DNA of 45,366 nt from Enterobacteria phage HK225: the sequence record NC_019717.1, one strand, 5' to 3'. A program made the translations under genes and the position numbers. Every line of letters starts with the position of its first letter. Within the stretch, counting starts at the first letter, position 1. Below are positions 14,650-40,432 of this stretch, piece after piece. The notes under the pieces are model-generated. The model did no database searches. It was not told where the DNA came from and was given only the letters and a program-made list of their open reading frames with translations.

Positions 14650-15224
14650 TGACCCGGATTGAGCTTGGCGGCGTGCTCGGGAAAACATTCGGTAAAATTC
14701 ACCACCGCCTGATTTCCCGTGTAAGCGAGGCGGGAGTGGCGCTCGCAAAGACTATTCCGGGCTTTGAGCAGTTTATGATTTCCAGCCAGCGCCGTGGGCT
14801 CACATACTCCGTATTTAAGGGTAAAAAAAACATCGGTGTGGATGACCTCGGTTTCCCGGTTACCGGCGATGTTATCCGCATTGTCCCGGTAATCATCGGG
14901 AGTAAAAAAGCCGGTTTGATTCAAACTATCCTGGGCGCAGTATTAGTGATTGCATCGATCTGGATGCCAGGTCTGAGTATAGCTGCCAGCAATATGATGT
15001 TTGCTGCTGGTGCGTCCATAACGCTGGGGGGGGTAGTTCAGATGATATCCCCTCAGGCTACAGGGCTGGCCAGCAAACAGAGCTCAGATAACCGCGCCTC
15101 ATACGCGTTCGGCGGAGTCACAAACACCGCAGCGCAGGGCTATCCGGTACCGCTTCTTTATGGTCGCCGACGCATAGGCGGCGCAATTATTTCAGCCGGG
15201 ATTTACGTTGGGGATCAACAATGA
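14637..15224 (+). CDS. I: tail assembly protein I
   Basis: 195-aa ORF overlapping the K end; hydrophobic central segment and GYPVPLLYGRRRIGG motif as in lambda gpI. Confidence 0.8.
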   Translation: MQEVMTRIELGGVLGKTFGKIHHRLISRVSEAGVALAKTIPGFEQFMISSQRRGLTYSVFKGKKNIGVDDLGFPVTGDVIRIVPVIIGSKKAGLIQTILGAVLVIASIWMPGLSIAASNMMFAAGASITLGGVVQMISPQATGLASKQSSDNRASYAFGGVTNTAAQGYPVPLLYGRRRIGGAIISAGIYVGDQQ

Positions 15225-15487
15225 AGAAATACTTAAGATTGACCATTTCAGGCCTGCATCGCGTTGATGACGGAATCCTGATCGGCGGAAATGCGACAGT
15301 AATAGTAAACCGTGGCGGAGAGGTTATTTGTCGCGAGAAGTTTTCTGGCAAAGTTTCTGATAAATATTCAAAGCTATATGAAGTTGAAGACACCGGTATT
15401 CCAGTATCAGTAACGTCTTCCAGTGATTGTCAGTTTTTCAAGGCAGAAGCTGATTTTGTAAACCCATTTAGCGAAACAAATATCTGA
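15221..15487 (+). CDS. hypothetical protein (moron between I and J)
   Basis: 88-aa ORF, ATG overlaps the I stop (ATGA); visibly AT-richer than neighbours; followed by a strong terminator; no lambda counterpart. Confidence 0.5.
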   Translation: MKKYLRLTISGLHRVDDGILIGGNATVIVNRGGEVICREKFSGKVSDKYSKLYEVEDTGIPVSVTSSSDCQFFKAEADFVNPFSETNI

Positions 15488-15506
15488 TTAATTTTCTCTT
15501 GCAATA

Positions 15507-15530
15507 AGCCACCTCAGGGTGGCTTTTTTT
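15507..15530 (+). terminator. intrinsic terminator after the I-J moron
   Basis: GCCACC-tcag-GGTGGC stem followed by TTTTTTT, preceded by AATAA. Confidence 0.7.
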
Positions 15531-15541
15531 ATGGGCGCAAT

Positions 15542-18500
15542 ATGGCTATATCTACTCCGATTAGAGGCCGCAAGGGCGGCAGCTCAAGTTCCCGCACCCC
15601 GACTGAACAACCAGACGATCTCCAGTCCGTAGCGAAGGCCAAAATTCTTGTTGCGCTGGGAGAGGGGGAATTTGCAGGACAGTTGACGGCGAAGGATATC
15701 TATCTCGATGGAACTCCACTGGAGAATGCGGACGGATCGCAAAACTTCAGCGGCGTGGCGTGGGAATTTCGCCCAGGGACTCAGGCACAAAAATACATTC
15801 AGGGTATCCCCGGTACCGAAAATGAAATCAGCGTGGGCACCGAAGTGTCAAGCACCACCGGCTGGACACATACCTTTACCAACACGCAACTGTCAGCCGT
15901 TCGCCTGCGCCTCAAGTGGCCATCGCTTTTTAAACAGGAGGATGATGGCGATCTGGTTGGCTATTCAATTAACTACGCTATTGATCTGCAGACCGATGGC
16001 GGCACCTGGCAGACGGTACTTAATACCAGCGTAACCGGCAAGACAACTTCCGGCTACGAACGCAGCCATCGTATCGATTTACCACAGGCAGGCAGTACAT
16101 GGACGGTGCGCCTGCGTAAGCTCACGGCGGATGCCAACAGCGCGAAAATTGGCGACACGATGACGCTGCAGAGCTACACAGAGGTCATTGACGCCAAACT
16201 GCGTTATCCAAACACCGCGCTGTTGTACATCGAATTCGACTCAAGCCAGTTTAACGGCTCTATCCCGCAAATATCCTGCGAACCGCGAGGGCGTGTAATC
16301 CGCGTTCCGGATACGTATGACCCGGAGACCCGCACCTATAGCGGCACATGGACGGGGGCGTTTAAGTGGGCGTGGACGGATAATCCAGCCTGGATTTTTT
16401 ACGATCTGGTGGTGAGCGACCGCTTTGGGCTGGGCAATCGCCTGACGGCGGCCAATATTGATAAATGGACGCTTTACCAGGTCGCGCAATATTGCGATCA
16501 GCCGGTTCCTGATGGTAAAGGCGGTAGCGGCACTGAGCCTCGCTATACCTGCAACGTGTATGTGCAGGAGAGGAATGACGCCTATACCGTGTTACGAGAT
16601 TTTGCGGCGATATTCCGGGGCATGACTTACTGGGGTGGCGATCAAATCGTTGCGCTGGCGGATATGCCCCGCGATGTGGATTACAGCTACACGCGTGCAA
16701 ACGTGGTTAATGGGCGCTTTACCTATTCGGGCAGCACCACGAAAACCCGCTATACCACAGCACTGGTTTCCTGGTCCGATCCGGGTAATGCCTACGCGGA
16801 TGCGATGGAGCCTGTATTTGAGCAGGATCTCGTTGCTCGCTTTGGCACAAATCAGCTCGAAATGACAGCCATTGGTTGTACCAGACAGTCAGAAGCGAAC
16901 CGAAAGGGGCGCTGGGGTATTCTCACCAACAACAAGGATCGCGTTGTTTCGTTCGATGTCGGGCTGGACGGAAACATACCGCAGCCTGGCTATATCATCG
17001 CTGTGGCAGACGAGCTGCTTTCCGGAAAGGTGATGGGAGGGCGTATCAGCGCGGTTAATGGTCGCGTTATCACGCTTGATCGTGATTCCGCAGCCGTTGC
17101 CGGAAGCCGTCTTATGGTTAACCTGCCGTCTGGCGCATCGCAGAGCAGGACGATACAGAGCGTAAACGGTCGGGCTGTCACCGTGACCACGGCATACAGC
17201 GAAACACCGGCAGTCGAATCGGTATGGATTGTCGAATCCGACGAGCTTTATGCACAGCAATATCGTGTTATCAGCGTCGCTGATAATAACGACGGCACGT
17301 TTTCGATTACTGGTGCTTTTCACGATCCGGATAAGTATGCCCGTATCGATACCGGCGCCATCATCGACCAGCGGCCAATAAGTGTAATTCCGCCCGGTAA
17401 TCAGTCCCCGCCAGCCAACATCACGATCAGTTCGTTTTCGGTTGTTCAGCAGAATATCAGCGTCGAAACGATGCGCGTGAGCTGGGACCAGGCGCAGAAC
17501 GCTATCGCCTATGAGGGGCAGTGGCGCCGCAACGACGGAAACTGGGTGAACATGCCTCGCAGCTCCACCACGTCATTTGACGTCCCGGGGATTTATGCCG
17601 GGCGCTACCTGGTGCGCGTGCGCGCAATTAATGCCGCTGAAATTTCCTCAGGATGGGGATATTCAGAAGAGAAGACACTGACCGGCAAAGTAGGTAATCC
17701 GCCTAAGCCAGTAGGATTCACAGCCACGGGCATTAACTGGGGGATTCGTCTTAACTGGGGTTTCCCGGCAAACACCGGCGATACGCTAAAAACGGAAATT
17801 CAGTACACTGCCAACAGTGACTTTTCAGATCCACTCTTGCTCTCAGACGTGCCTTATCCATCTGCGGAATACACCCAGCTCGGCCTTAAAGCAGGGCAGG
17901 AATTCTGGTACCGCGCGCAGCTGGTCGACAGAACGGGTAACGAGTCCGGGTATACCGACTGGATCAGGGGGATGTCTAACGATAACGCCGATGATTATTT
18001 GGGCGATATCGCAGATGATTTCCTAACCTCTGCAGACGGAGAACGCCTGACTGGTGACATCGATACCAACATTGAGGGAATACTGCAGAACGCCCTGGCG
18101 AACCATGGAACTGTTGAGCACCAGTGGGCACAATACGGAGAAGTGCGTGCCGATATTCTGGTGGTTAAAACGACGATTGCTGAAGTTGATAATGCAATGG
18201 CCGAACTTTCGACGCAGGTGCAGGCGCAGATTGAGGATGTTACCGCTTCCCTGGAAGACAAGCTTACAGCTGTCGTAGATGCCTCCGGTGCTTCGGCAAT
18301 CCACACCCTCAAAACGGGCGTGAGAATAAACGGGGTGATTTATAACGCCGGGATGTCTATTGCAGTGCTTGCAGAGGCAGGGAAGCCGGTAGTCACGCGG
18401 GTTGGTTTCAACGCTAACCAGTTCGTGCTGATGAGCGGCAGTGGTGATACCCAGTATTCGCCGTTCGCGGTGGTAAACGGTCAGGTGTTTATCAGCTCAG

Positions 18501-18730
18501 CGTTTATTCAGGATGGCACGATCACCAATACCAAAATCGGTAACTTTATCCAGTCGAACAATTATGTTGCCGGCTCTGTTGGCTGGAAACTGGATAAGTC
18601 CGGGACGTTTGAGAACTACGGTTCGACAGCTGGGGAGGGAGCCATGAAGCAGACCAACCAGACAATCAGCGTCAAGGATGGCAACAACGTTCTGAGAGTG
18701 CAGGTTGGCCGATTAACGGGGGTGTTCTGA
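15542..18730 (+). CDS. J: central tail fibre / host specificity protein J
   Basis: 1062-aa ORF after I; lambda gpJ-like size (1132 aa) and position. Confidence 0.9.
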   Translation: MAISTPIRGRKGGSSSSRTPTEQPDDLQSVAKAKILVALGEGEFAGQLTAKDIYLDGTPLENADGSQNFSGVAWEFRPGTQAQKYIQGIPGTENEISVGTEVSSTTGWTHTFTNTQLSAVRLRLKWPSLFKQEDDGDLVGYSINYAIDLQTDGGTWQTVLNTSVTGKTTSGYERSHRIDLPQAGSTWTVRLRKLTADANSAKIGDTMTLQSYTEVIDAKLRYPNTALLYIEFDSSQFNGSIPQISCEPRGRVIRVPDTYDPETRTYSGTWTGAFKWAWTDNPAWIFYDLVVSDRFGLGNRLTAANIDKWTLYQVAQYCDQPVPDGKGGSGTEPRYTCNVYVQERNDAYTVLRDFAAIFRGMTYWGGDQIVALADMPRDVDYSYTRANVVNGRFTYSGSTTKTRYTTALVSWSDPGNAYADAMEPVFEQDLVARFGTNQLEMTAIGCTRQSEANRKGRWGILTNNKDRVVSFDVGLDGNIPQPGYIIAVADELLSGKVMGGRISAVNGRVITLDRDSAAVAGSRLMVNLPSGASQSRTIQSVNGRAVTVTTAYSETPAVESVWIVESDELYAQQYRVISVADNNDGTFSITGAFHDPDKYARIDTGAIIDQRPISVIPPGNQSPPANITISSFSVVQQNISVETMRVSWDQAQNAIAYEGQWRRNDGNWVNMPRSSTTSFDVPGIYAGRYLVRVRAINAAEISSGWGYSEEKTLTGKVGNPPKPVGFTATGINWGIRLNWGFPANTGDTLKTEIQYTANSDFSDPLLLSDVPYPSAEYTQLGLKAGQEFWYRAQLVDRTGNESGYTDWIRGMSNDNADDYLGDIADDFLTSADGERLTGDIDTNIEGILQNALANHGTVEHQWAQYGEVRADILVVKTTIAEVDNAMAELSTQVQAQIEDVTASLEDKLTAVVDASGASAIHTLKTGVRINGVIYNAGMSIAVLAEAGKPVVTRVGFNANQFVLMSGSGDTQYSPFAVVNGQVFISSAFIQDGTITNTKIGNFIQSNNYVAGSVGWKLDKSGTFENYGSTAGEGAMKQTNQTISVKDGNNVLRVQVGRLTGVF

Positions 18731-18731
18731 T

Positions 18732-19034
18732 ATGGCTTATGGAATACAGACCTGGGATGCTTCGGGAAACCCCAACAACTACGGAATCAAGCCCGTTTCC
18801 GTTGTTGGACGTATACAACTTGCCGCCGGACAAAACTCCGGCAGCTGGTCTTTCACTGTACCCTCAGGAATGAAGGTCGGTTTTGCGCTCTCACTTGATG
18901 AAGGAGGTAACAGCGTAGGGAGGAGCATTGTCGCGTCAGGGAACACAATAACCGTAACCGCAGCCTCTTCTGTGGGCCTGGGTAATTACCCGGCCTCTAA
19001 ATGTGAGGTGGTCGTTTTCATGGAGAAAGCATAA
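18732..19034 (+). CDS. hypothetical protein (tail-tip associated, coupled to J)
   Basis: 100-aa ORF starting 2 nt after the J stop; shares WDASG and SGSW motifs with the next ORF. Confidence 0.5.
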   Translation: MAYGIQTWDASGNPNNYGIKPVSVVGRIQLAAGQNSGSWSFTVPSGMKVGFALSLDEGGNSVGRSIVASGNTITVTAASSVGLGNYPASKCEVVVFMEKA

Positions 19035-19708
19035 TGGCCGAATTTGGCGCGATGATATTAATGGATAACGGGAATCCCTTTGTAACGCCACAATCAACGC
19101 CTTTCTGTCTTTACGGGAAGTATACCTTCAATTCATCCGCGAATGGCAGTTCTCAGCAGGTTGCTCAAAATATCGCTTTAAACGCTGATTACCCAGTGAT
19201 GGTTTTTATCAAAACCACCAATACAGCACAGCCCACTCCGGTTATGTCTTACAGGAACGGCGGTAATGTGTATGTTGTTGGTGTTAATCCCTACAACCAA
19301 AGTTTCACTTTAACGGCGTACGTTTTTGCCATATTCCCGCAGATATTACCGAAATGGGGTTTGGCAATATGGGATGCGAGCGGAAAGCTTGTGTTAACTA
19401 ATGAGTCCCGTGTGCTATCAGACCTGCAGACGGTTGGCACGCCTGGTGCAAACGGCGGGATAAATATTGACCAGACGCTGAGCGGGTCATGGGCCGTTGC
19501 ACCTGCTCAGTTGGGTCAGACCATCATTGTGAATAATTCAACCCAGCCTCCGACTATCTACACGATAAATGCTTATTCTTCATGCAGGTTTGACGGGGCC
19601 AATACGAGGATAAACGCAGGGGGGACCTCCACTGGGACAGGTTCACCTGTAGGGGGAACGAATACTGGCATTTCATTAACCGCCATAAATACAGCGGCCT
19701 ATGATTGA
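19034..19708 (+). CDS. hypothetical protein with two copies of the WDASG-type module
   Basis: 224-aa ORF, start overlaps the previous stop; Gly/Thr-rich C-terminus. Confidence 0.5.
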   Translation: MAEFGAMILMDNGNPFVTPQSTPFCLYGKYTFNSSANGSSQQVAQNIALNADYPVMVFIKTTNTAQPTPVMSYRNGGNVYVVGVNPYNQSFTLTAYVFAIFPQILPKWGLAIWDASGKLVLTNESRVLSDLQTVGTPGANGGINIDQTLSGSWAVAPAQLGQTIIVNNSTQPPTIYTINAYSSCRFDGANTRINAGGTSTGTGSPVGGTNTGISLTAINTAAYD

Positions 19709-19730
19709 TTGATCGTTTTTAGCGATCAAT
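19708..19730. promoter_or_regulatory. palindrome ATTGATCG-N7-CGATCAAT upstream of the lipoprotein gene
   Basis: perfect 8-bp inverted repeat in an AT-rich intergenic region. Confidence 0.3.
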
Positions 19731-19819
19731 AACATAATATTGATCTATCCAATCAATTATACCCACCAGAATTGTATTGGTATCGTCTAAGATACTGAAT
19801 TCCTCTGGATACTATCAAA

Positions 19820-20053
19820 ATGAGAAAACTGATTATCTGCATGGCAGGCGCTGTCATGCTTACAGGATGCGCTGGCGTAATTGAGAAACAGGAACCAGTT
19901 TGCAGCGGCACTGCAATCGTTGGCGGTCAGGAAACTACGGTTCAGATTTACGGTGTGCGTAAACAAAACAACCAGACGCAGTACCGGGCTGGATATCCTT
20001 TCAGCTGGCGCTGGGTAAGTGCGAATACATTTACCGAAACAACCTGCAAATAA
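19820..20053 (+). CDS. small lipoprotein, candidate Cor-like superinfection exclusion protein
   Basis: 77 aa; signal peptide with lipobox LTGC; own AT-rich upstream region and terminator; sits in the lom/cor slot between J and stf. Confidence 0.5.
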   Translation: MRKLIICMAGAVMLTGCAGVIEKQEPVCSGTAIVGGQETTVQIYGVRKQNNQTQYRAGYPFSWRWVSANTFTETTCK

Positions 20054-20074
20054 CCCACTACGCTTAAACATAAA

Positions 20075-20096
20075 CCTCGCTCCGGCGGGGTTTTTT
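20075..20096 (+). terminator. intrinsic terminator after the lipoprotein gene
   Basis: CCTCGC-tccg-GCGGGG stem followed by TTTTTT. Confidence 0.65.
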
Positions 20097-20116
20097 ATTG
20101 CCCGAAAGGAGCGCAT

Positions 20117-20977
20117 ATGTCTGCAGGAACTATCACCCTGACAAACGGGTCCGCTGTTGTTGGCGGTGCCGGAACCTCATTCGCAACCGAACTCGCCGGA
20201 GGTGATTTCATTGTTTCGACTGTGGGCGGTGTGCCCTACACGCTGCCGGTGAAAACGGTCGACAATAATACCCAGGTGACGCTGGTCAGCAACTTCACCG
20301 GGCCAACACAATCCGGCGCGGCCTGGTCAGCTGTGCCACGCGTGGCGCTGAACATGGTCACTGCCGCGCTGGTGGCGCAAAGTGCCGAAGCACTACGTGG
20401 TTTGAATTACGATAAACAGAACTGGCAGCAGGTTTACAGCGCCGCCGGAAACATCACAGTGAAGTTGCCAGACGGCACCACTTTCACCGGCCCATCATGG
20501 AAATATCTGTCTGACAATATGGCAACCAAGAGCGGTGGTGCAGTACCCGTTAACCAGGGAGGGACCGGGGCGACAACCGGAAACGCCGCGCTGTCCAATC
20601 TGGGTATCACCTATGTCAGGTCAGGAACAAACTACAGCGTGATAAAAATTGGCGATATTTATCAAATGGATTTCCTCATAGGTGGCGGCATCGCAATAGG
20701 GGCGTATAACCCTTCGGTAGTGGGAGGTATTGCGTATTACACGCACTACTATAAATTACCCCTGCCGATGGCATTACCAAACGGCGTTATAACTGCCATT
20801 GCGTCCATTTCGGGTGACAGATTTGGAAATCAATACCCCGGATACAATGCTGACGTTAAAGTATCCAGAGATAAAGATGATGGCAGTGGGCTATTAACAA
20901 CATATTTAACCGTCAGCGTTAAAACTCCTCAGACAGGCTGGACCCCTTATTTTCATATAAGAGTGGTGGGGTATTGA
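20117..20977 (+). CDS. stf: side tail fibre protein (short)
   Basis: 286-aa ORF, Gly/Thr-rich N-terminus MSAGTITLTNGSAVVGGAGTSF typical of enterobacterial tail fibres; immediately followed by a tail fibre assembly gene. Confidence 0.6.
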   Translation: MSAGTITLTNGSAVVGGAGTSFATELAGGDFIVSTVGGVPYTLPVKTVDNNTQVTLVSNFTGPTQSGAAWSAVPRVALNMVTAALVAQSAEALRGLNYDKQNWQQVYSAAGNITVKLPDGTTFTGPSWKYLSDNMATKSGGAVPVNQGGTGATTGNAALSNLGITYVRSGTNYSVIKIGDIYQMDFLIGGGIAIGAYNPSVVGGIAYYTHYYKLPLPMALPNGVITAIASISGDRFGNQYPGYNADVKVSRDKDDGSGLLTTYLTVSVKTPQTGWTPYFHIRVVGY

Positions 20978-20978
20978 T

Positions 20979-21392
20979 ATGAAATATTTTTACAGCATCA
21001 GCACGCAGGGATTTTACCTCGATAACGGTATGCTGGATGCGTATAAAGCGGCTGGCTCACTACCTGCGGACTTGCAAGAGATGAGCGAGGCTGACTATCT
21101 GGCGTTTTTTAATCCTCCCGATGGATTCGCGGGCATATTTGACGAGAAAGGACCGCGTATTGAACAACTGCCAGAACTGGACCCGCTGGCGATAGCAGAA
21201 AATCAACGGCGGCTGTTGCTGTCAGAAATCGCTCCGACTATTTCTGTATGGCAGACAAAAATCCTGGTGGGCATGAAACTGAGTGATTCAGAAACCGCAG
21301 CCCTGCATGCCTGGTTGAGTTACAGTGATGCGCTGAACGCGCTGGATATCACCGTGCCAGATATTCAGTGGCCTGAAAAACCCGCAGCGTGA
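20979..21392 (+). CDS. tfa: tail fibre assembly protein
   Basis: 137-aa ORF 1 nt after stf; MKYFYS...GFYLD N-terminus typical of Tfa chaperones. Confidence 0.7.
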   Translation: MKYFYSISTQGFYLDNGMLDAYKAAGSLPADLQEMSEADYLAFFNPPDGFAGIFDEKGPRIEQLPELDPLAIAENQRRLLLSEIAPTISVWQTKILVGMKLSDSETAALHAWLSYSDALNALDITVPDIQWPEKPAA

Positions 21393-21407
21393 TGTGATTT
21401 TCATTAA

Positions 21408-21433
21408 CCGGGCAGAAAAGGATGACTGCCCGG
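21408..21433. terminator. hairpin between convergent tfa and dinI (possible bidirectional terminator)
   Basis: CCGGGCAG-N10-CTGCCCGG inverted repeat. Confidence 0.35.
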
Positions 21434-21449
21434 TGATGTGAATATGTAA

Positions 21450-21689
21450 TTAATCAGCAACCAGCCACATGTCAGATTCTTCAAACATCTCTTCAAGCAT
21501 ACGATTAAGCCGTTCTTTCTCTGTTTTCGTGCAGTTGCTGTTTAGCGCGTTCGCCTGCATCGGCTTTACCTTCACTTCGGCACCAGGGAAAATCTGGTGC
21601 ACCCGCTTCGTCAGTTCGGCCAGAATGATCTCCCTGGCCCCTTCGAGCCCCTCAACATTTCGCTTGTCATAAACCAGTTCAACAAACAT
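21450..21689 (-). CDS. dinI: DinI-like SOS-induced protein
   Basis: ATG at 21689 is preceded by AAGAGGA; 79-aa product aligns with E. coli DinI (ELTKRVHQIFPG, EESDMWLVAD); the upstream part of the 208-aa track ORF is rejected. Confidence 0.75.
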   Translation of the reverse strand: MFVELVYDKRNVEGLEGAREIILAELTKRVHQIFPGAEVKVKPMQANALNSNCTKTEKERLNRMLEEMFEESDMWLVAD

Positions 21690-21745
21690 ACCGATCCTCT
21701 TATAAGTGAAAACTGCCTGTGCTTGATCTGTTTTCATAAAAATAC

Positions 21746-21765
21746 TACTGTATATACATACAGTC
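21746..21765. promoter_or_regulatory. LexA box (SOS operator)
   Basis: TACTGTATATACATACAGTC matches CTGT-N8-ACAG; lies between dinI (-) and the divergent ORF at 21789 (+). Confidence 0.8.
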
Positions 21766-21788
21766 AATGAGCGAGTGAGGGTGCATTT

Positions 21789-22088
21789 ATGCCTCGTCAA
21801 CCGGATATTCGTGCTGCTTTTATTGCGGCCATACAGCAAAACCCGAAGGGCTATCTCTGTCTGCATACAGACAAGTTCATCGCTGAACTGCAGGAGAGGA
21901 ACTGGCATTTCAGTCAGGCGGATGCAAATACATGGATCGAGCGATACCAGCCGGACTTCGCCGATAAGACGACAAACGAAAGCGAGAACCGGTACTGGAT
22001 CCTGCGTAACATGGGGAGGGTTCTGAGGAGTTATCTTGCGATGCGCTATAGGTTTGCCCCATCCCTCCCAAACCAACCTTTTTTATAA
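21789..22088 (+). CDS. hypothetical protein, divergent from dinI
   Basis: 99-aa ORF with GAGG-type SD; begins 24 nt after the LexA box. Confidence 0.45.
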   Translation: MPRQPDIRAAFIAAIQQNPKGYLCLHTDKFIAELQERNWHFSQADANTWIERYQPDFADKTTNESENRYWILRNMGRVLRSYLAMRYRFAPSLPNQPFL

Positions 22089-22147
22089 CCATCAAAAATC
22101 TGGTGATGCTTCGCCGTTTCTCCTGTTTTCATAACAGGAGAAATCCC

Positions 22148-22696
22148 ATGATTTACGGTTATGCCCGAGTATCAACAAACCACCAGGACACTGAATTGCA
22201 ACTAACGGCGCTCAAGTCAGCGGGTTGTGAGAAAATTTTTGAAGAGCATGCCAGCGGGAGGAAATCGAATCGGCCGGTTCTAAAACGGCTGATCGCCACT
22301 ATGCAGCCGGGGGATGAACTGGTGGTCTGGAAGCTGGACAGGATAGGCCGCAACGTTCTGCATGCGCTGTTGATGTTCCAGCAGTTACAGGAAAAGGGTA
22401 TCAACTTCCGCAGTATTACCGATGGCGTGGATCTCAAAACAGCCAGCGGCCGCTATAACTTTCGTAACATCCTTTCCGCAGCACAATATGAATCTGATCT
22501 TAATAGCGAACGTACCTTAGCAGGGCTGGCCGTAGCCAGGGCAAAAGGGCGAGTTGGTGGTCGCAGGCCTAAGTTCACGGATGAGCAATGGCGGGAAATG
22601 GGGGAGCGGATGGCAATCGGTGAATCACGACAAAGCGTATCAAAAACGTATGGAGTAGGGCTCTCAACTCTGTATAAAAAGTTTCCAGCTAGCTGA
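22148..22696 (+). CDS. serine recombinase, DNA invertase (Hin/Gin/Pin family)
   Basis: ATG at 22148 after AGGAGA; MIYGYARVSTNHQD catalytic-Ser N-terminus, VVWKLDRIGRN, C-terminal HTH ending GLSTLYKKFPAS. Confidence 0.85.
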   Translation: MIYGYARVSTNHQDTELQLTALKSAGCEKIFEEHASGRKSNRPVLKRLIATMQPGDELVVWKLDRIGRNVLHALLMFQQLQEKGINFRSITDGVDLKTASGRYNFRNILSAAQYESDLNSERTLAGLAVARAKGRVGGRRPKFTDEQWREMGERMAIGESRQSVSKTYGVGLSTLYKKFPAS

Positions 22697-22716
22697 TAAC
22701 GGGAAAGAAACAGAGA

Positions 22717-22760
22717 AGGGCACAAATATTGTGTACTTTAATGTGCCCTTTAATTTATTG
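22717..22760 (+). terminator. hairpin with T-rich tail after the invertase
   Basis: AGGGCACA-N17-TGTGCCCT stem followed by TTAATTTATT; loop contains a TGTGTAC motif. Confidence 0.45.
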
Positions 22761-23015
22761 ATTGGTGGTTGAATTGTCCGTAACTTTTTGATTTAAGTTC
22801 AAATTTCTAATAAATTAGAACACTTTCTTAAATTGTCATTTGGCATATTACGAACAATTCCGCGTAAAAACGTTCTGTTACGCTAAACCCTTATCCAGCA
22901 GGCTTTCAAGGATGTAAACCATAACACTCTGCGAACTAGTGTTACATTGCGTGTAGCTTTGAGTGGGCAACTTTGTGTACACTTTTGTGTACCCAAAAAC
23001 AAAAATGTGTACCCA
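22720..23015. other. candidate attP region with TGTGTAC repeats
   Basis: AT-rich non-coding region upstream of int; TGTGTAC at about 22731, 22975, 22987 and 23007; contiguous phage DNA on both sides. Confidence 0.35.
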
Positions 23016-23019
23016 TTCA

Positions 23020-24213
23020 ATGATCACCGACACAAAGCTCAGGAAGGCGCTCGGCAAGAAAAGAGATGATATCGAGATTATTTCTGATTCGCACGGGCTC
23101 AACGCCAGAATCAGCCAGGCCGGAAAAATATCATTTTTCTATCGGTATCGCTGGGCCGGTAAAGCGGTAAAACTCAATGTTGGTGATTATCCTGCAATGA
23201 GTATCACCCAGGCAAGAGAACGTCGCCAACAATTCAGAAACTGGTTAACTGAGGGACTGGATCCGCGAGAGCAGGTGAAGCTGGATAAGCAGACCCGACA
23301 GGAAGCGATGTCCGTTGCCGAAGCGTTCAATTACTGGATTGAAAGGCACTGTATCGCTAACGGGCTAGTTAAAGTCGATTACTATCGCCAGGTGTTTGAG
23401 AAACATATCGCCGAACCGATGAAGAATGTCAAAGTCGATAACACAGCGAAAATGCACTGGATCAACGTCTTCGATTCTATAGAAAGCAGGGTGATGGCTC
23501 ATTACATGCTTTCGCTGTGCAAACGGGCGTTTAGGTTCTGCGTTAACAGAAGTGTGATCGCCTCAAACCCACTCGAGGGATTACTGCCATCTGATGTCGG
23601 GCAAAAGCCTAAAAAGAGAACTCGCAGGATGGACGATGACGATCTGCGCAAAATCTATCAGTGGTTGAAAAGCCATATGTCGATAGAGTCCGTTTTCCTG
23701 GTGAAATTTATTATGCTTACCGGATGCCGTACGGCTGAGATTCGACTTAGTGAGAGATCATGGTTTCGATTGGATGATAATGAGTGGGTCGTGCCTGCGG
23801 GCAGTTATAAAACTCGGGTACATATTAGAAGGGGACTCTCAGACGCCGCCGTTAACCTGGTCAGAAATCACCTCAAGAAAATAAACACCAATCACCTGGT
23901 GACTTCACAACGTAAAATTGATGGCGGGATCAAAGATTCGCCCGTTCATTCACCTGTGGCATCCAATTACGCCCGTTCTATTTGGAATGGAACAGGTATG
24001 GCAGAGTGGTCGCTTCATGATATGAGGCGGACGATAGCCACAAATCTCTCTGAGTTAGGTTGCCCGCCGCACGTAATTGAAAAGCTGCTCGGGCATCAGA
24101 TGGTGGGGGTTATGGCGCATTACAACCTTCATGACTATATCGATGATCAGAAACACTGGCTCCGCGTTTGGCAGAGCCATCTTGAAGAGATCATCGGAGA
24201 GCCCTTCAGTTAA
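23020..24213 (+). CDS. int: tyrosine integrase (P4-like family)
   Basis: track ORF starts at GTG 22963; [11 protein letters not shown]-terminus is typical of P4-type integrases; catalytic-region motifs HDMRRT and LLGH...HY; start could also be ATG 23005. Confidence 0.85.
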
Positions 24214-24452
24214 TTTATCTTCTTTTTATCCTCCCACTCTTTGATTGACTCAGAGCGCCAGCGGTTAGGGTTGCCGGGCCAGTCAGGGGGTGGGAACGGG
24301 CATACGAAGCCCCGAGGCATTGTGTCTGCACTTTGCCATGACCAAAGGGTTTTGCGTGAAATTTTGTAGCGACTGGTCAGGTCTGACGTTACCAAAATAT
24401 CATCCATAGCTCTCTCCAGTTGCCCGTTCGGGCCATTCAAAATCTTTTTCAA
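24210..24452 (-). CDS. xis: excisionase-like / AlpA-type small DNA-binding protein
   Basis: 80-aa ORF convergent with int and overlapping its stop; FPPP...W motif recalled from excisionases paired with P4-family integrases. Confidence 0.5.
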
Positions 24453-24691
24453 CCAACCTGCCCGGGCAGGGAGCGGAGACGGCGCATGCCGGTCATCGCT
24501 GTGGCCACGTAGCTCGCCTTTCGGTTCACCACCTCCACCCAGACTTTCACGCCTTCAACCTTCACCGTATAAGTCTCTTTCATCTTGCTTCGCCCATAGT
24601 CGCCATATGTTTGCAAGTGAGCTGCCAGCGCGATGTCGCATGCTTGGCGAGCTAAAGGTGATTGCTTACTTCCTCGATTGATCAGTCGCAT
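24449..24691 (-). CDS. hypothetical protein
   Basis: 80-aa ORF with AGGAGA SD 4 nt upstream; coupled to xis. Confidence 0.45.
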   Translation of the reverse strand: MRLINRGSKQSPLARQACDIALAAHLQTYGDYGRSKMKETYTVKVEGVKVWVEVVNRKASYVATAMTGMRRLRSLPGQVG

Positions 24692-39976: not shown

Positions 39977-40432
39977 ATGATTATCCCCAAAGACGGCATC
40001 AAGCTACACCGTGGAAATCTTGGTGCTATCACTCAGCATCTGAAGCCACTTCTCGAAAACGGTGAGTGCTTCCGGCTCCAACTCAAAGACTGGCGCGAGA
40101 AGAGAAGCCTTTCACAAAATAGTCTGAGCCACGTTTGGTACAAGGAAATAAGCGACTACCTGATCAAGTCTGGGCGCACTGACGCAACGCCTGCATGGGT
40201 AAAGCGAAACCTCAAAAAAACTTATCTGGGTTATGAAGAGGTTGAGTACACCGATTTCGTCACCGGAATTAAGACGATTGAATTAGAACTCCGCCACACG
40301 TCCGATCTGGACACTGGCGACATGCACCATTTCATGTGCCAGGTGGAAGGCTGGTGCGCTCAGTTTGGCCTGGTGCTCACAATCCCTCAAAGCAGCGAAT
40401 TTCAGGTGCTGCGCGATAAGCAGGAGGCCTGA
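39977..40432 (+). CDS. ninB: NinB-like recombination protein
   Basis: 151-aa ORF; KRSLSQNSLSHVWYKEIS resembles the NinB RNRSLDQN region. Confidence 0.55.
   Translation: MIIPKDGIKLHRGNLGAITQHLKPLLENGECFRLQLKDWREKRSLSQNSLSHVWYKEISDYLIKSGRTDATPAWVKRNLKKTYLGYEEVEYTDFVTGIKTIELELRHTSDLDTGDMHHFMCQVEGWCAQFGLVLTIPQSSEFQVLRDKQEA

Follow-up and report, generated by a model that had tools for sequence, protein, structure and literature searches.

Several described systems provide a frame for the invertase locus of phage HK225. In the e14 P segment of E. coli K-12, a side tail-fibre gene (stf) carrying a left-hand (L) crossover site, opposed tail-fibre assembly (tfa) and tip cassettes, a right-hand (R) crossover site and an invertase gene occur together, as they do in the relatives of the HK225 locus, and the e14 crossover sequences, CTCTCGAAAACC-TT-GGTTTGGGAGAA and TTCTCCCAAACC-AA-..., are identical to the type found in these relatives. 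HK225 differs from e14 in that the segment and the L site are absent, and e14 lacks a long hairpin in the leader of its invertase gene. Phage Mu encodes Gin, the best structural relative of the HK225 enzyme (Pin), and also has its R site 54-59 bp upstream of the invertase gene; unlike Mu, HK225 has no G-like segment. PinQ and PinR of the cryptic prophages Qin and Rac are, like HK225 Pin, prophage serine invertases encoded beside tail-fibre genes, no invertible segment of their own has been described for them, and they belong to a different branch, reported to be 38% identical to the e14 enzyme PinE (PMC12529663). They invert the e14 P segment in trans at TTGGTTTGGGAGAAGG / CCTTCTCCCAAACCAA, and they protect against T2 (PMC12529663); these P-segment repeats are the same half-sites as those found here.

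The nearest counterpart is pinL of phi80 (PHI80_30), for which all statements rest on the GenBank annotation of phi80 (Lula), JX871397. It is the same gene as pin of HK225 (171 of 172 aligned residues identical), lies between the tail-fibre region and attP/int, is preceded by the same leader repeat, annotated as 'IR3', and has an R site at the same position and no left site. The two loci differ in that phi80 pinL is cut to 172 aa whereas the HK225 gene encodes a full-length protein of 182 aa, in the outer half-site and spacer (CCTTTCAAATAT in phi80, CCTTTTTTATAA in HK225), and in what lies upstream of the gene, a tail-collar pseudogene fragment in phi80 and a fused orf99 in HK225.

The sequence analyzed here, called the window below, is the record NC_019717.1 (45,366 nt), which comprises a whole lambdoid, phi80-like phage genome with its genes in virion order. 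Very probably, its intact phi80 pinL-type invertase gene, which needs two crossover sites and is accompanied by one, was left stranded as the remnant of an ordinary tail-fibre host-range switch. The enzyme of most relatives would flip two opposed tail-fibre-tip/assembly cassettes between an L site in stf and the R site, and in HK225 only the R site (22063-22088) appears to survive. The switch is probably frozen, with no substrate in cis, because a single site is present and the two-site requirement of the family is established. The locus is a stranded part of a known switch, essentially the situation of phi80 pinL, and not a new system; in an annotation, the gene is better described as the stranded half of a host-range switch than as an invertase with a mysterious target. 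A stranded half-switch would therefore mean a fixed side-tail-fibre specificity in HK225. Beyond correct annotation, the finding is of little importance. The features on which the argument draws are these:

Left end of the window: terminase genes
15542-18730: J, tail tip gene
19820-20053: cor
20117-20977, plus strand: stf, side tail-fibre gene of the non-invertible type, an open reading frame with no Pfam match
20589-20614, plus strand: position in stf homologous to the L site of relatives, CGCTGTCCAATC-TG-GGTATCACCTAT, encoding ALSNLGITY
20979-21392, plus strand: tfa, tail-fibre assembly gene in single copy (Pfam Caudo_TAP, E=7.2e-19)
21453-21692, minus strand: dinI-family gene (Pfam DinI, E=5.2e-22), at the site of the invertible segment in relatives
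21789-22088, plus strand: orf99, homologue of the 79-aa HK140_027 protein, stop codon lost
22063-22088, plus strand: R crossover site, CCCTCCCAAACC-AA-CCTTTTTTATAA, at the homologous position in about 80 relatives and the top match to the position weight matrix (PWM)
22102-22115, plus strand: small 5-bp hairpin, GGYGA-N4-UCGCC, predicted singly and in the consensus of 17 relatives
22116-22144, plus strand: pin leader hairpin with a 12-bp stem and a 5-nt loop, 'IR3' of phi80, from folding and conservation
22148-22696, plus strand: pin (phi80 pinL allele), encoding a 182-aa Gin/Pin-family serine DNA invertase (Pfam Resolvase and HTH_7)
22817-22833: attP core of phi80 type, AGAACACTTTCTTAAAT, identical to the annotated mEp237 attachment site
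22963-24213: integrase gene

Early, replication and lysis genes lie to the right of the integrase gene. Among the collection phages none matches the window as a whole, the best being mEp237 with 43% coverage of the right half. The DNA at 22065-23000 is 95-97.3% identical to phi80 and mEp237, their annotated attP core included, and in these genomes the same gene is annotated as pinL or DNA invertase; judged by this identity, pin, attP and int are one mosaic block common to phi80 and mEp237. The same pin module is found in E. coli at the yciI end of phi80-like prophages. A close copy of HK225 stf occurs in one relative only (L004). The gene directly before stf, cor, encodes an FhuA-blocking exclusion lipoprotein, an order shared with phi80, N15 and the mEp phages, and the terminator of cor lies between the two genes at 20060-20095. 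As stated in a first-pass annotation of this DNA, the invertase gene lies downstream of stf and tfa, and the tail-fibre region holds no inverted duplicate segment: the longest inverted repeats in 15000-24500 are 17-30 nt with 70-88% complementarity, and no second copy of stf or tfa was found in the window.

The same annotation had placed the protein in the Hin/Gin family, and this placement is borne out by its domains and by the family alignment that had been proposed as a check. With 182 aa, Pin has the small size of the family (~180-190 aa); it matches PF00239 (Resolvase, E=3.7e-39, residues 2-135) and PF02796 (HTH_7, E=5.2e-09, residues 138-181), and its best match among solved structures in the PDB is Gin (3uj3, E=2.6e-56) in a full-length alignment that spans residues 1-181. 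Ser9 aligns with the catalytic position, and Gin has the same residues at the counterparts of R7, D64, R65 and R68. Matches to NCBIfam were all below threshold and all to other serine recombinases. By these domain and catalytic criteria, Pin is a member of the Gin/Hin/Cin/Pin invertases. A Tn3/gamma-delta-type resolvase, which would have a transposase gene beside it and a res region of several subsites, was considered and rejected, since the neighbouring genes are phage genes and resolvase matches fall far below Gin (gamma-delta resolvase, E=2.7e-25, about 30 orders of magnitude weaker).

Within this family, the PinL-type clade forms a separate branch, with 55% identity to PinE (100 of 182 residues for HK225 Pin) and 51% to Gin (93 of 182), whereas PinE and Gin share 143 residues (77%). 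HK225 Pin is identical at 181 of 182 positions to the Pins of 31 relatives, which include mEp237 and E. coli prophage alleles at yciI. The sole difference from that allele, T157I, results from a C-to-T change at 22617 in the DNA-binding (helix-turn-helix) domain; it is found in HK225 alone among all close relatives, at a residue that is not conserved between the PinL clade and Gin.

The R site was defined by aligning the 100 nt upstream of the invertase start in about 80 relatives (80 IMG/VR loci plus genome loci and phage records), with the IMG/VR scan as the source of most of the comparative data and a scan of genome contigs contributing 14 loci. In HK225 the site consists of an inner, segment-side half, a 2-bp AA core at 22075-22076 and an outer constant half, and it lies 59 bp before the pin ATG, a position shared with the R sites of the relatives. 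To the right of the core the sequence is constant across the aligned leaders, and to its left the 12-mer consensus TTCTCCCAAACC recurs in 61 otherwise unrelated upstream contexts. On alignment grounds, this combination of a constant right side and a recurrent left side marks a crossover site with an inner half contributed by a variable invertible segment. The first-pass annotation had reported no convincing gix/hix-like site and had left the target of the enzyme open; a convincing site does exist, since the R site overlaps the start of the interval it had assigned to the invertase, and the cognate target is a site of the TTCTCCCAAACC type, which the e14 P segment also has.

Position rather than score identifies the R site, because a half-site as good as that of HK225 is reached in 33% of shuffles of the 45 kb. 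The inner half in HK225 has CC instead of TT at two outer positions. This CCCTCCCAAACC variant is probably still usable because the same inner half is paired with a good L site in one relative (L069). Given the variant half-site together with T157I, any activity of HK225 Pin on a crossover site is best called putative.

Most relatives carry what HK225 lacks. Their L site is inverted with respect to the R site and lies inside stf, about 1-3.2 kb upstream of R, where the encoded residues are ...LTNLGLGE; one typical example reads CTCTCACAAACC-TT-GGTTTGGGAGAA. An inverted L site is present at 55 of 85 loci by strict criteria, and at 68 of the 81 loci with enough upstream DNA when a PWM score of at least 15 is taken. 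Between the two sites lies an invertible segment of 1-3.2 kb, mostly 1.2-2.1 kb, with two opposed tfa genes. Either orientation of the segment is seen among relatives: at an identity of at least 85% over at least 50% of the length, 47 pairs were inverted and 64 direct. In one inverted pair (L037 and L041) the match extends across the full 1867 bp. Alleles nearly identical to HK225 Pin belong to switches for which either orientation is known. As a control on described systems, a half-site matrix was derived solely from the R sites of these relatives; applied to the e14 P segment it recovered exactly the two known sites (31.7 and 27.6, next 0.2), and applied to the Mu G segment it did the same (22.1 and 22.1, next -2.1). 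The survey of relatives yields a clean site definition for phi80/PinL-type switches, namely inner half-sites of the TTCTCCCAAACC type, with R located 59 bp before pin.

Four of the draft contigs (L005, L006, L008 and L017) stop 90-330 bp upstream of the invertase gene. Ends of this kind are how assemblers behave where the adjacent segment is present in two orientations.

In HK225 itself, the search for a partner of the R site was negative by each approach. An L-site matrix built from 30 distinct L sites and scanned over the 45-kb window gave the R site as its top match (15.0) and a next match of 1.8; for reference, shuffled windows give a mean best match of 6.1, and the scores of genuine L sites are 27-43.5. 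A scan with a symmetric two-half matrix placed the R site at 9.2 and the next match at 3.3, with no partner in the window. When half-sites alone were scanned over the window, the other matches were at chance level, and none was inverted with a matching AA/TT core. At the stf position homologous to the L site of relatives (20589-20614), the PWM score is -21.2 and the core is TG rather than TT, so that no site is present there. Two features that define the family, a pair of inverted 26-bp sites with matching cores and an invertible segment with alternative tail-fibre ends, are represented in the 45-kb window by one site and by a single stf and a single tfa. The matrix search for a flanking pair of sites, set beforehand as the refuting test of the first-pass annotation, thus returned no pair in the phage, because only one site exists.

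Serine invertases such as Cin can use degenerate 'quasi' sites at low frequency. For this reason, it has to be weighed whether HK225 has a further partner, cryptic or non-canonical, that would keep a large or unusual segment invertible; weak half-site matches are present, e.g. at 40050 (12.1) and 24165 (12.0). We consider it extremely improbable that such a partner operates, given that no full-site candidate rises above chance, with the best match other than R far below the shuffled mean, that the two-half scan separates R from all else, and that no half-site is inverted with a matching core. The first-pass annotation had offered both a remnant and action at a distant or cryptic site as explanations; the remnant is favoured by the complete switches of close relatives, found in both orientations, and a cryptic site within the window is not, as no partner was found.

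The manner in which the left site was lost can be read in part from the DNA that replaced it. HK225 carries dinI and orf99 where relatives carry the invertible segment, an arrangement shared by two or three prophages (L004, L035 and H121). In HK140, the orf99-homologous 79-aa protein (HK140_027) is followed by a umuD-like gene. Other phages are homologous up to 22022, and pin modules from 22065 onwards; in between, the orf99 frame, having lost its stop codon, reads through 42 bp (22023-22064) into the crossover site. Among 5426 complete E. coli genomes, these 42 bp turn up in 3, and only at the same junction; the HK140 umuD-like gene resembles them loosely at its 5' end (about 60%), and at the protein level they are not similar to the tail-fibre tips of relatives. 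The left site and the segment would have been lost when recombination brought in a different stf and tfa, of the non-invertible type, together with a dinI/orf99 module under LexA control, with a junction that probably lies 1-42 bp to the left of the R site.

A near-consensus LexA box, TACTGTATATACATACAGT, lies at 21746-21765 between the divergent dinI and orf99 genes. A sigma-70 scan upstream of pin gave no plus-strand promoter candidate. Because of the LexA box, because orf99 and pin share a strand with 60 bp between them, and because only a weak hairpin lies in that interval, SOS-induced read-through from orf99 could transcribe pin in the HK225 mosaic.

Decay to the one-site state has occurred repeatedly, as a usable left site was also lost independently in phi80, mEp237 and many E. 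coli prophages. In mEp237 (L002), a degenerate left site, CTCGCACAAACC-TC-GGTTTAGGCACA, lies about 2.0 kb upstream of pin, and its TC core is a mismatch to the AA/TT core of the right site; this locus is a switch caught partway through decay. In many E. coli prophages, all that is left of pin is 3' fragments beside attR.

Between the R site and the pin start codon lies the perfect 10-bp inverted repeat that the first-pass annotation had described as overlapping the Shine-Dalgarno sequence. Its arms lie at 22118-22127 and 22133-22142, separated by a 5-nt loop, and the right (3') arm contains the GGAG, 7 nt before the ATG. Perfect 10-bp hairpins of this kind number four in the window, against 0.36 expected from shuffles. 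The hairpin alone has a predicted energy of -15.4 kcal/mol, and the leader has a minimum free energy of -24.9 kcal/mol (z=-5.6). Across 17 diverse leaders, the stem is invariant except for one compensatory U-A/C-G pair and the loop varies; the outermost (12th) stem pair is G-U. The small hairpin at 22102-22115, directly upstream of the main one, shows C-G/U-G variation among 17 diverse relatives. Distant invertase genes (mEpX1 type and several from enterobacteria) have unrelated sequences and yet pair with their ribosome-binding sites. The Mu and e14 leaders contain only weak versions of the hairpin, and an Rfam scan of 21700-22400 gave no family match.

On folding and conservation, the repeat is best read as an mRNA hairpin that would sequester the ribosome-binding site and act as a translational brake, keeping synthesis of the invertase low, and not as the candidate recombination site for which it might have been taken. 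As a crossover site it was rejected, since its length is 25 bp, the half-site matrix does not accommodate its inner positions and the PWM scan does not pick it up. The brake is deduced from structure and conservation, and the repeat may function as a palindrome bound by a protein, in addition to or in place of the hairpin. Members of the serine recombinase superfamily are known to autoregulate through crossover or res sites, and in a specific form of this alternative the repeat at 22118-22142 would be a DNA operator or pseudo-crossover site at which a Pin dimer represses its own transcription. At its ends it has the same six bases (TTCTCC...GGAGAA) as the outer end of the crossover half-site consensus, it sits between the R site and the ATG, and conservation of the stem with one symmetric change would fit protein binding as well as RNA pairing. 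The resemblance to a half-site ends with those six bases, however, as the AAACC block is missing and the inner six positions are off the matrix, and both this and the 25-bp length, where a site has 26 bp, weaken the reading as a Pin operator. The repeat is also not among the PWM matches, the G-U pair at the 12th position is meaningful only in RNA, and other invertase clades pair their ribosome-binding sites with unrelated sequences. We therefore regard a Pin operator as very unlikely and retain the RNA hairpin as the preferred interpretation. In the mEpX1-type loci (L075 and L077-L079), a different leader hairpin, TTCACC...GGTGAA, lies over the ribosome-binding site.

An intact invertase gene with a single site raises the matter of why it persists. 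At most, HK225 Pin could invert, in trans, the e14-type segments that other prophages in the same host carry, and such action is plausible because the sites are identical to those of e14 and because PinQ and PinR provide a precedent. A stronger proposal is that the enzyme is kept for a selected function in trans, flipping e14/P-type segments with consequences for, e.g., cell-surface or defence phenotypes. The intact pin frame of HK225, the identity of the TTCTCCCAAACC half-site and of the L site CTCTCGAAAACC-TT-GGTTTGGGAGAA to the P-segment sites, and the finding that PinQ and PinR invert e14 in trans and protect against T2 (PMC12529663) are all consistent with this proposal. Against it, pin genes without a paired left site decay elsewhere, as in the 172-aa pinL of phi80 and in the 3' fragments beside attR in E. 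coli, which argues against strong selection for a function in trans; the junction is rare (3 of 5426 complete E. coli genomes), and linkage to attP and int explains persistence without any function. Selection for action in trans therefore seems to us rather unlikely. From the pattern of decay and the place of pin in the attP-int block, the gene probably persists by linkage rather than selection, through the mosaic block it shares with the phi80-type attP and int.

Another proposal concerns the enzyme itself, namely that the PinL clade is an uncharacterised branch of invertases under looser control than Gin or Hin, which would drive exchange of tail-fibre modules or act as a switch in trans. 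It arises because Asn104 of Pin occupies the position of Hin Phe105 and because the distal Fis position of gin is not conserved. The helix-E motif YNFRNILSAAQYESDLNS (Pin residues 103-120; 22454-22507) is invariant in 44 of 46 distinct clade proteins and replaces FFFHVMGALAEMERELII of Gin; more generally, Gin and PinE have FFFHVMGALAEMERELI(I/V) there. Within this helix, Ile108 aligns with Hin Met109 and Ala111 with Hin Leu112. Hin Phe105 controls Fis dependence, and the Hin F105N substitution gives faster, partly Fis-independent inversion (PMC4513852). Invertases of the family have a recombinational enhancer with a pair of Fis sites in the 5' part of their gene. A proximal Fis-like 15-mer, GTATCAACAAACCAC, is present at nt 22-36 of pin, at the same codons as in gin and also as in pinE, in a coding region and for a class of site that is degenerate. 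At the distal position of gin (nt 71-85 of pin; 22218-22232), the HK225 sequence is CAGCGGGTTGTGAGA, without the flanking G and C.

Looser control of the clade is, in our estimation, unlikely. If it were true, a single-site PinL-type enzyme could recombine with imperfect partner sequences and would not be a dead remnant, and this would explain homology breaks 1-2 bases from the core at several loci without a good left site. At a group of loci (L058, L061, L063, L068, L043/L071 and L024/L045), the inner half-site is swapped for a non-consensus sequence, e.g. ...CATAGG-AA or ...TAAAGC-AA; most of these loci lack a good left site, and all are kept from the core rightwards. Breaks of this type suggest breakpoints at the point of strand exchange, as expected for recombination with imperfect partner sites.

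The invertase genes of the mEpX1-type phages (L075 and L077-L079) look chimeric, with a Gin-like N-terminus, MQIGYVRVSTND, joined to a PinL-type remainder, and the DNA homology of these loci to HK225 begins only at about 22308.
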